This document shows, one piece after another, positions 33,616 to 34,761 of a DNA stretch of 64,000 bases. The translations under genes were made by a program, and so were the position numbers. The stretch spans positions 8,070 to 72,069 of the forward strand of contig CAZPCQ010000001.1 in assembly GCA_964585155.1 (NCBI GenBank), in the 5' to 3' direction. Numbering within the stretch: the first letter of the stretch is position 1; each line of letters begins with the position of its first letter. Under the pieces are notes generated by a model, which was not told the DNA's origin, ran no database searches, and saw only the letters and a list, made by a program, of their open reading frames with translations. Origin of the DNA: an uncultured Candidatus Saccharibacteria bacterium (GTDB taxonomy: Bacteria > Patescibacteriota > Saccharimonadia > Saccharimonadales > Saccharimonadaceae).

Positions 33616-34761
33616 ATGTCCAAAAAACACCCTAACCCTCCATTATACCACACAAAAGGTAAAAAGTCAATAGAAAAGGCCAAATCTGTGGAAAAATCTA
33701 TTAAATCCTGTGGAAAAGATGTGGAAAACCTGTGCAAAACTACTCCAAAACCTGTGGATAACCTGTGTAAAACTTCTAATAAGTTTGTGGATAACTCTCA
33801 AGACACTGTGAAAAAAACTACCGAAATTGTAGATAATTCTACTAACTCTGGTGGAGAACCTGTGCAAAACCGTCAAGAAGATGTGGAAAAATCTCAAAAT
33901 TCTGCGCAAAAATCCGAGAATTTTGTGCAAAACTCGTCAAAACAAGTAGAAAATTCATCAAAATCTATGGAAAACTCTCAGCAGCCATTTCTTAAATCCC
34001 AGGAGCCAACCTCTCGTCACCCAGAATCTCCCAAAACTCGCATCAAAGTCACCAATGTCCACAAACAATTCCGCCTCCCCACCGAACGCGCCAGCGGCCT
34101 CAAGCAGGCCATCCTCAACTGGTTCAAAGGCATTAAGGGCTACACCGAGCACGAAGTTCTCAAAGGTATCAGTTTTGAGGTCAAAGACGGTGAATTTCTC
34201 GGCATCGTCGGTCGCAATGGCTCCGGCAAATCTACCCTTCTCAAACTCCTCGCTCAGATTTATTACCCAGAAAAGGGAACTATTACCGTCGACGGCACTC
34301 TGGTTCCGTTCATTGAACTAGGCGTCGGCTTCAACCCCGAGCTCACTGGCCGCGAAAATGTTTTCTTGAACGGCGCTCTTCTTGGTTTTTCTCACCAAGA
34401 AATGGAGTCTATGTATGACGAGATTGTCCAATTCGCCGAGCTCGAGCAATTTATGGACGCCAAACTCAAAAATTATTCCTCTGGTATGCAAGTTCGCCTC
34501 GCTTTCTCCATCGCCATCCGCGCCAAGGGCGACATCCTCATTCTTGACGAAGTTCTTGCCGTCGGCGATGCCGAATTTCAGCAAAAATGCAACGACTATT
34601 TCGCTAGCCTCCACGGCCAGCAGACTGTCATCCTCGTCACTCACGATATGAACAATGTCCGCCGCTTCTGCGACCGTGCCATCCTGATCGAAGATGGTAA
34701 AATTATGGACCAAGGCAACCCCGAAGACGTCGCCAAGTCTTATGAGAATTTATGGAAATAA
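33616..34761 (+). CDS. wzt: Polysaccharide ABC exporter ATPase with a ~135-aa N-terminal extension
   Basis: GRNGSGKST, ELTGRENV, YSSGMQVRLAFS, DEVLAVGD; SD GGAGGAGG before the ATG at 33616. Confidence 0.92.
   Translation: MSKKHPNPPLYHTKGKKSIEKAKSVEKSIKSCGKDVENLCKTTPKPVDNLCKTSNKFVDNSQDTVKKTTEIVDNSTNSGGEPVQNRQEDVEKSQNSAQKSENFVQNSSKQVENSSKSMENSQQPFLKSQEPTSRHPESPKTRIKVTNVHKQFRLPTERASGLKQAILNWFKGIKGYTEHEVLKGISFEVKDGEFLGIVGRNGSGKSTLLKLLAQIYYPEKGTITVDGTLVPFIELGVGFNPELTGRENVFLNGALLGFSHQEMESMYDEIVQFAELEQFMDAKLKNYSSGMQVRLAFSIAIRAKGDILILDEVLAVGDAEFQQKCNDYFASLHGQQTVILVTHDMNNVRRFCDRAILIEDGKIMDQGNPEDVAKSYENLWK
33687..33974 (+). repeat. Phased DnaA-box array inside the wzt coding sequence
   Basis: About 16 TGTGGA(T/A)AA-like 9-mers spaced 11/21/22 bp; perfect TGTGGATAA at 33753 and 33786. 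Confidence 0.85.

Follow-up and report, generated by a model that had tools for sequence, protein, structure and literature searches.

Clusters of DnaA boxes outside the replication origin, as well as the action of DnaA as a transcription factor, are established (PMC2533591, PMC4585315, PMC13438810). The DnaA-box clusters (DBCs) of Bacillus subtilis and the datA and DARS loci of Escherichia coli each consist of several canonical boxes outside the origin for which binding of DnaA and modulation of the availability of this initiator are either presumed or known (PMC2533591, PMC4585315, PMC5010248). Within origins, arrays of boxes in the same orientation guide the stepwise growth of the DnaA oligomer (PMC4285127). 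Here, we describe an array of canonical-type boxes that lies within the translated 5' part of wzt, the gene for the ATPase of a Wzm/Wzt-type ABC glycan exporter, in a 64,000-nucleotide stretch (hereafter, the window) of contig CAZPCQ010000001.1 from an uncultured Candidatus Saccharibacteria bacterium. Our literature searches returned no description of DnaA boxes in Saccharibacteria, Patescibacteria, TM7 or the candidate phyla radiation (CPR), and none of translated DnaA-box arrays.

From the sequence comparisons reported below, we put at roughly 60% the probability that this array is a cluster of sites for DnaA, set in a translated tail that is disordered, where it would serve DnaA-dependent antisense control and/or DnaA titration. 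The main features of the locus are the following.

32794..33615, + strand: wzm, ABC-2 permease (Pfam ABC2_membrane, E=6e-17), with the C-terminus ...FAEEV followed by TAA
33604..33611, + strand: Shine-Dalgarno (SD) sequence GGAGGAGG for the wzt ATG at 33616; GGAGG, GAGGAGG or GGAGGAA occupies the same place in 24/24 loci
33616..34761, + strand: wzt open reading frame (ORF), 381 aa, with a predicted disordered extension (about aa 1-140) and the ABC ATPase core after it
33642..33670, - strand: sigma-70-type promoter TTGACT-17-TGGTATAAT (TGG-TATAAT), whose + strand reads PLYHTKGKKSI
33687..33974, all on the + strand: array of 16 DnaA-box-like 9-mers spaced by 11, 21 or 22 bp
33687, 33709, 33720, 33753, 33786 and 33882, + strand: exact TGTGGAWAA boxes (n=6)
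33731, 33764, 33807, 33861 and 33924, + strand: TGTGNAWAA boxes (n=5)
33828 (TGTAGATAA), 33850 (GGTGGAGAA), 33903 (TGCGCAAAA), 33945 (AGTAGAAAA) and 33966 (TATGGAAAA), + strand: boxes with 1-3 mismatches to TGTGGAWAA (n=5)
34036..34761, + strand: conserved Wzt ABC core, starting ...RIKVTNVHKQF; from K150 on, the alignment contains invariant columns

The original prediction, that the N-terminal extension of Wzt is built from a phased array of DnaA boxes, listed 16 positions, and at each of these, the + strand indeed reads as a 9-mer similar to TGTGGAWAA, the gaps being 11, 21 and 22 bp as claimed. In order, the gaps are 22, 11, 11, 22, 11, 22, 21, 21, 22, 11, 21, 21, 21, 21 and 21, that is, 279 bp in 26 steps or 10.7 bp per step, with a 21-bp (7-aa) period prevailing in the distal half. 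At 288 bp, the array has the makeup of a DnaA-box cluster (several 9-mers that differ from TTATNCACA / TGTGNATAA at no more than 1 position, packed into a few hundred bp). The motif is strongly overrepresented in the window: TGTGGAWAA is found 25 times against 1.33 expected (19-fold; 0/100 shuffles reach 25), and TGTGNAWAA 42 times against 4.35 expected. The TGTGGAWAA hits fall into four non-coding clusters around or near dnaA and three clusters inside ORFs, namely, wzt, a GT4 glycosyltransferase gene and a Wzy-like gene. Across 25 related loci, spanning 4-9 kb each (most of them 8-9 kb), a box cluster occurs almost solely in wzt.

Read on the opposite strand, the 9-mer of the array is the canonical DnaA box, TTWTCCACA, and the same boxes flank dnaA, dnaN and recF in this window. 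The DnaA protein encoded here aligns over its full length with B. subtilis DnaA (8btg), and its reading residues are canonical, with the domain IV R (ARQVAMY), P (TPKIA) and DHTTVMH all retained. The dnaA region and its box clusters are laid out as follows.

8542-8756, no strand assigned: non-coding box cluster by recF, composed of TGTGGAWAA hits
8777-9781, - strand: recF (identified by Pfam/sequence)
9915-11021, - strand: dnaN (Pfam/sequence)
11077..11276, no strand assigned: reference box cluster in the dnaA-dnaN intergenic region, including AACTTTCCCACA four times at 12-bp phase
11289-12662, - strand: dnaA (Pfam/sequence)
12695..12857, - strand: dnaA promoter with upstream boxes; TGGAAA-17-TATAAT with TG, the -35 element overlapping a box, and a cluster at 12717-12857
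12928-13064, + strand: rpmH (Pfam/sequence), with rnpA in the same origin-type gene set
18529..18622, - strand: promoter-box module, with the -10 element TGGTATAATG and 3-4 boxes at 12-bp phase just upstream; cluster at 18567-18622

The boxes of the last module read TGTGCAAAACTC, TGTGGAAAACTC and TGTGCAAAACTT. It lies about 260 nt ahead of an ORF at 16457-18265 (-) that gives a weak, sub-threshold match to Fib_succ_major, and it looks like a DnaA-regulated promoter for this uncharacterised ORF. A further observation concerns the non-coding segment of about 600 bp downstream of recF (8160-8776), which is dense in TTTTCCAC and TTATCCAC words in both orientations and is extremely rich in C (skew of -0.56); it may be part of an origin or another DnaA-box cluster.

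Phased boxes of this type are not peculiar to the window. A metagenome scan for three boxes at 11-bp phase yielded 120 loci from many environments; in nearly all of these, the array is outside any long open frame, and at least 11 have dnaA beside the array. Two of the loci (L072 and L142) were set aside as long TGTGGAAAA-type satellites of another kind: they contain 21-22 tandem units of this type in satellite-like repeats of about 33 bp (L072, 1283-1716; L142, 286-796), the opposite strand is open in all three frames, and the phenomenon is probably a different one.

Two further arrays lie within ORFs of a second glycan block, farther along the window, which consists of a sugar transferase gene, a GT4 gene (44340-46337) and a Wzy-like ORF (46334-48328).

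45281..45613, - strand: second in-ORF array, 14 boxes, in GT4 ORF 44340-46337 (aa ~314-425), between the two Rossmann halves
47566..47670, + strand: third in-ORF array, 6 boxes, in the Wzy/O-antigen-ligase-like ORF 46334-48328

The wzt array had been described as opposite in orientation to the GT4 array and independent of it; the orientation is as stated, and the two arrays have only box-sized words in common. The third array, in the Wzy-like gene, goes beyond that earlier description. In GT4 orthologs, which are 370-1010 aa long, the interdomain site of this array is occupied by an insert of 0-199 aa, with the boxes in either orientation: most inserts read FSTx, LSTx, FSTT, SPQ, FPQ, YPQ or FHN, corresponding to - boxes, and at least 11 read PVENS, SVEKS or SVDNS, corresponding to + boxes, while many orthologs have only a one-box seed, "PKLSTDFS". 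Thus, one site accommodates unrelated peptides but one DNA motif, which singles out the DNA motif as the conserved unit. The GT4 protein additionally has Lys/Ser/Pro-rich low-complexity tails at both termini and a second insert at aa ~170-215, which suggests a lineage generally tolerant of low-complexity insertions. These results cover 64 kb of this genome and relatives with flanks of at most 10 kb, so that the apparent confinement of in-ORF arrays to glycan genes applies at this scale rather than genome-wide.

Several lines of evidence indicate that the repeat is constrained at the DNA level, beyond what the encoded peptide would require. The same 9-mer is used in three frames, in accord with the earlier claim that the boxes read in different frames: 11- and 22-bp steps shift the frame inside one array, and the boxes are read as SVEK, VEN, DVEN, VDN, VQN or PVDN, as CGKD or GGE, and as LCKT. 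Codon choice follows the box. Valine is encoded by GTG in 94/118 extension codons (80%) versus 55/297 codons of the ABC core (19%; Fisher p=1.5e-31, a value that is overstated because the codon and phasing statistics treat related sequences as independent), and glutamate by GAA in 71/77 extension codons versus 162/317 core codons. Among 143 boxes from 16 loci, most positions of the 9-mer contain 1.1-2.4 bits of information versus 0.1-0.6 bits in the spacers, and the box-to-box distances across loci cluster at 11, 21/22, 32/33, 42-44 and 53-55 bp. No long repeat or mobile element is common to the arrays, in which the shared matches are only 11-23 nt, that is, box-sized; copies of a mobile element were rejected as an explanation on this ground. 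At the protein level, a word-indexed search with the extension alone produced 4 candidates, none significant, and a HMMER search against 1.84 billion representatives gave 3 hits, two of them to unrelated repeat proteins and one (P0123) to what resembles a translated box array of another organism. Protein-level searching cannot catalogue such arrays.

The extension itself is almost certainly translated, according to a comparison of 24 Saccharibacteria wzt loci with an extension and available DNA (a subset of 16 loci was used for some counts). The strong SD and the coupling of the wzm TAA to the wzt ATG, on which the original prediction based its case for translation, hold up: here the TAA directly abuts the ATG at 33616, and the comparison of ortholog N-termini that had been proposed as a check finds the SD, the wzm-stop/ATG coupling and an open gene frame in 24/24 loci, all of which share a wzm gene ending in ...FAEEV and a wzt ATG abutting or overlapping the wzm stop. 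Within 33616-34035, the gene frame has 0 stops, and each of the remaining five frames has 4-11; in nearly all ortholog loci, stops interrupt the two alternative forward frames, and only 1/20000 shuffles of the extension is stop-free. The extension is 24-143 aa long in the 24 loci, and because nearly all of these lengths are distinct, yet all the extensions are in frame and stop-free, many independent frame-preserving indels must have occurred. More broadly, the lengths of Wzt homologs lie between 248 and 391 aa and differ by an N-terminal segment of 5-150 aa that is built from these peptide words. In 8/16 loci, an in-frame ATG farther downstream is lacking altogether, and near the core, no locus examined has an SD-led internal start. 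The open gene frame and the SD with coupling in 24/24 loci, together with this lack of an internal SD-led start, are among the grounds on which we judge the extension to be translated.

The boxes themselves bear the imprint of translation. In the TGT-GNA-WAA frame, where a T at position 7 would create TAA, this position is A in 13/13 boxes, compared with T in 12/65 boxes of the V-x-K/N frame; in the nTG-TGN frame, represented by 4 boxes only, position 5 is C or T and never A (TGA) or G (Trp). The extension is steadily rich in K, S, N, V and E, and its peptide includes MSKKHPNPPLYHTK and the words VEKS and VDNS. AlphaFold, given 57 homologs, assigns a pLDDT below 50 and no secondary structure to aa 1-125 and a confident ABC fold from about aa 141, so that the translated extension is predicted to be a disordered tail.

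Beyond the original prediction, there is a near-consensus antisense promoter within the first 20 codons of wzt. Its hexamers match the sigma-70 consensus at 11/12 positions and are accompanied by an extended -10 TG; TTGACT-N15-19-TATAAT occurs at two sites only in the 64 kb, this being one of them. The "LYH...KKS" peptide motif that corresponds to the promoter is present in many Wzt homologs. Among the 12 LYH-bearing loci with DNA, TTGACT is kept in 11/12, the 17-nt spacer length in 12/12, TGn in 12/12 and TATAAT in 11/12, while the sequence of the spacer varies. Synonymous positions are similarly fixed: the promoter Leu is TTA in 11/12 loci versus 8.1% in the cores (p=1e-11), the promoter Ser is TCA in 12/12 loci versus 4.8% (p=1.5e-16), and the sole freely varying wobble position is the third base of Tyr, which is the "n" of TGn. 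In most of the 12 loci, boxes recur 16, 37, 58, 79 and ~101/112 nt upstream of the -35 hexamer and hence are in register with the promoter. In 10/12 loci, the -35 element begins 49-52 nt after the ATG (L154, 37 nt; L158, 61 nt), which puts the predicted antisense start ~19 nt inside wzt (~33635). The predicted RNA, 5'-UUAGGGUGUUUUUUGGACAUUUAGACCUCCUCC..., would be antisense to the start codon and the SD of wzt as well as to the 3' end of wzm.

Within the window, exact TGGTATAATG occurs three times, always on the - strand: in the wzt promoter, in the dnaA promoter (12694) and at 18529, and both of the other promoters have box clusters just upstream. A second, 33-nt copy of the wzt promoter with 1 mismatch probably resides elsewhere in the same genome, judging from a contig of equal depth in run X1. 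No convincing promoter like that of wzt was found beside the GT4 and Wzy arrays, in which pairs of boxes 21-22 bp apart mimic weak TGGAAA-17/18-GATAAT promoters.

Taken as a DnaA-binding cluster, the array suggests the following scheme. The first 420 nt of wzt carry two overlapping codes, one for protein and the other apparently regulatory. The protein code, read from the wzm-coupled ATG, specifies a Lys/Ser/Asn/Val/Glu-rich tail, predicted to be disordered, whose exact sequence would be of little import, and the DNA code consists of one-directional boxes at multiples of about 10.7 bp, a spacing that places them on roughly the same face of the helix. DnaA would load cooperatively onto the array, which could then sequester DnaA away from the origin, in the manner of datA or the DBCs, and/or set the activity of the antisense promoter and, through it, the translation of wzt or the stability of the wzm-wzt mRNA, so that glycan export by Wzm/Wzt would be tied to the status of DnaA. 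The array presumably changes by duplication and deletion of units, with only the in-frame, stop-free versions persisting. In this scheme, DnaA occupancy, antisense transcription and the physiological effect are what we infer from the sequence, whereas the array and its phasing, the constraint on the DNA, the translation of the extension, the conservation of the promoter and its register with the boxes are documented by the comparisons above. A broader version of the scheme, which we regard as possible but put forward tentatively, is that DnaA platforms have moved into disordered segments of surface-glycan proteins (the Wzt tail, the GT4 linker and the Wzy-like insert), where they would act both as DnaA-responsive switches and as initiator sinks, in wzt by way of an antisense RNA over the ribosome-binding site.

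A number of observations weigh against reading the array as a DnaA-dependent switch or sink. Clusters of the datA/DBC type are non-coding, which the wzt array is not. There is no change in the sign of the GC skew at dnaA/dnaN (10-13 kb), which weakens the case for origin-proximal titration. The array and the promoter do not always travel together: in many orthologs (for example, L002, L003, L005-L007 and L009-L015), the promoter is missing although an array is present, and in L158 and L157, the promoter is accompanied by zero or one box; therefore, the two elements are separable and need not act together. A search for a terminator of the antisense RNA found none, and the locus turned up in no RNA run, only in host-label runs. 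Finally, the non-independence of the compared sequences, mentioned above, tempers the codon and phasing statistics.

The skew also bears on whether the array could itself be an origin. The + strand is C-rich over 1-60 kb (-0.05 to -0.56), the skew being ~0 only at 60-64 kb, and most genes of the window are on the + strand; therefore, either the skew-defined origin is not at dnaA or the skew is not replicative. The array does not resemble oriC, with no skew inflection at 33-34 kb or within 1-60 kb. Its flanks are coding sequence of ordinary composition, and no AT-rich unwinding element was noticed beside it on reading, with no formal search made for such an element or for a DnaA-trio.

Among the alternatives to a DnaA-binding cluster, the one that survives best, as an improbable but serious contender, is a neutral or selfish minisatellite, in which a box-like seed expands by slippage or unequal exchange and, in the absence of a function in DNA, selection acts on the reading frame only. 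This would account for the wide variation of array length among close relatives (from 24 to 143 aa for Wzt, from 0 to 199 aa for GT4), for the single-box seeds, such as PKLSTDFS, in many GT4 orthologs, and for the location of the arrays at sites that are probably permissive (a predicted disordered tail, an interdomain linker and a presumed loop). Pure slippage, however, would keep the spacers as well, yet the information is concentrated in the 9-mer. Moreover, three genes contain the motif, which is found there in both orientations and in all frames and agrees with the boxes of the dnaA region; the arrays lack long common repeats; and the positions of the boxes keep the promoter register across divergent loci.

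Two other explanations appear unlikely, to about the same degree. According to one, the 9-mers would bind another protein, for instance, a lineage-specific regulator of envelope or glycan genes, and would only resemble DnaA boxes. The three in-ORF arrays do all lie in glycan/envelope genes (wzt, GT4 and Wzy-like), and wzt is nearly the sole cluster site in the 25 related loci. Against such a factor stand the exact identity of the motif to the canonical DnaA box, the placement of the densest non-coding clusters around dnaA, dnaN and recF, the canonical base-contact residues of DnaA, and the presence of 11-bp-phased arrays beside dnaA in many unrelated metagenomic contigs. According to the other, the function would reside in the peptide, with the Lys-rich disordered tail of Wzt serving, for instance, as a spacer, as a tether to membrane or polymer or as an element that binds a partner, and with the DNA motif arising as a by-product. 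The tail is translated and kept in many lineages, its composition is consistently K/S/N/V/E-rich, and the distal half of the array has a 21-bp (7-aa) period, all as a peptide function would have it. Such a function does not explain why synonymous codons are strongly fixed to the box sequence, why the frame changes within arrays, or why the GT4 arrays of opposite orientation give unrelated peptides at one site; furthermore, many orthologs have a leader of only 5-26 aa, and AlphaFold finds no structure in the tail.

Still less probable is a contingency locus, in which slippage of 11-bp units would toggle wzt, GT4 and wzy and result in phase variation of the surface glycan. As would be expected of such a locus, the unit lengths of 11 and 22 bp are not divisible by 3, the bacterium is host-associated and has its arrays in surface-glycan genes, and array length is hypervariable between strains, but 24/24 wzt loci are in frame, with no frameshift variant among them. 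The repeats are also imperfect, at ~70-80% matching: Tandem Repeats Finder (TRF) reports periods of 11, 21, 22 and 33 with 69-79% matches rather than a near-perfect repeat. In addition, the array is identical, without indels, in 4 independent metagenome runs, as assembled in Logan contigs, which drop rare variants and would hide them.

The weakest alternative, the one originally named as fatal to the prediction, puts the start of Wzt at the ATG at 33967 or beyond it, which would make the array intergenic and the long ORF an artefact of gene calling; despite the presence of this in-frame ATG and the normally non-coding status of phased DnaA-box arrays, it is effectively excluded, given that ATG 33967 has no SD, that 8/16 orthologs are devoid of in-frame ATGs farther downstream and an SD-led internal start near the core is absent from all of them, that the gene frame is open in 24/24 loci while other frames have stops, that stop-free shuffles number 1/20000, and that box variants creating stops are avoided in a frame-specific manner.

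The gene neighborhood of the array is that of a glycan exporter. The cluster runs GT2, an unknown ORF, wzm, wzt, glf and GT2, and the synteny of wzm/wzt with glf and GT2 is kept among the relatives, of which the closest wzt loci come from gut and rumen Saccharibacteria metagenome-assembled genomes. The ABC ATPase of Wzt (Pfam ABC_tran, E=6e-23, aa 182-313) is paired with an ABC-2 permease, as in exporters of the Wzm/Wzt type; an exact-protein look-up of Wzt returned no record. The Wzt core is 66-67% identical to that of Bifidobacterium Wzt (L026-L028), which have neither the extension nor the boxes, and this level of identity suggests lateral exchange of glycan-export genes between Saccharibacteria and Actinobacteria. 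The adjacent Glf (UDP-galactopyranose mutase, ORF 34752-36152) is 466 aa long versus 387-406 aa in its orthologs, with an Arg/Glu/Ser-rich N-terminal stretch of ~80 aa preceding the Rossmann fold, that is, either a low-complexity extension or a start called too early.

Two results concern the window as a whole. A search of its full length against Rfam produced a tRNA-Met as the sole match. A 21-nt direct repeat, GAAGGGGTGGGAGTGCAAGCC, is present in three exact copies (13116-13136, 14186-14206 and 62407-62427; 0 expected), two of which flank rnpA and an AT-rich non-coding stretch of ~860 bp that follows rnpA upstream of yidC.

The locus offers a clean, clade-wide natural case of a long, phased array of initiator sites under two constraints, namely, the sequence of the box and the open reading frame, with arrays in three genes of one pathway and, in wzt, an antisense promoter conserved at synonymous sites. 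If DnaA binds the array, it follows that minimal genomes can accommodate regulatory DNA in the disordered segments of their proteins, that control of replication and export of surface glycans would be connected in an episymbiont in a way open to testing, and that low-complexity "extensions" of CPR proteins may have to be regarded as elements of the DNA and not of the protein, a point that bears on annotation. Saccharibacteria have reportedly been manipulated genetically (PMC10633639). Should the reading of the array as a switch or a sink prove true, it would represent a general, dual-coding way to place regulatory DNA where intergenic space is scarce, and the export of envelope glycans in a clade of ultra-small Saccharibacteria would be wired to the replication initiator.

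The wzt locus can be compared with several known systems. With the Wzm/Wzt exporters of O-antigen and teichoic acid, it shares the coupled ABC-2 permease and ABC ATPase and the glf, GT2 and GT4 neighbors; in this Wzt, the Pfam matches are confined to the ABC core (aa 182-313 of the 381 aa) and reveal no additional domain, and a variable N-terminal tail, predicted to be disordered, is present that the Bifidobacterium homologs lack. Like the phase-variable tracts of glycan genes, the array is a length-variable 5' or internal coding repeat of the kind seen in LPS, capsule and glycan genes of host-associated bacteria with small genomes, but the likeness to contingency loci is only superficial, because its units are imperfect, always in frame and made of a protein-binding-type motif rather than a simple repeat. 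With the oligomerisation arrays of oriC, such as the low-affinity sites of E. coli and the one-direction boxes of Helicobacter pylori (PMC4285127), it has in common boxes of the same orientation about one helical turn apart, but, unlike these, it is intragenic and 21 kb from dnaA. In DnaA-regulated promoters, such as that of the autoregulated dnaA gene or of Pseudomonas aeruginosa gidA, boxes lie upstream of, or overlap, a sigma-70 promoter (PMC13438810), as they do in the wzt module; in wzt, the promoter is antisense and inside an opposed gene, and the number of boxes is far higher. The DBCs, datA and DARS, with which we began, are intergenic or non-coding and consist of ~4-9 boxes, whereas the wzt array comprises 16 boxes within a translated ORF; it also differs from these clusters in being hypervariable in length among relatives and in having sister arrays in two other ORFs.

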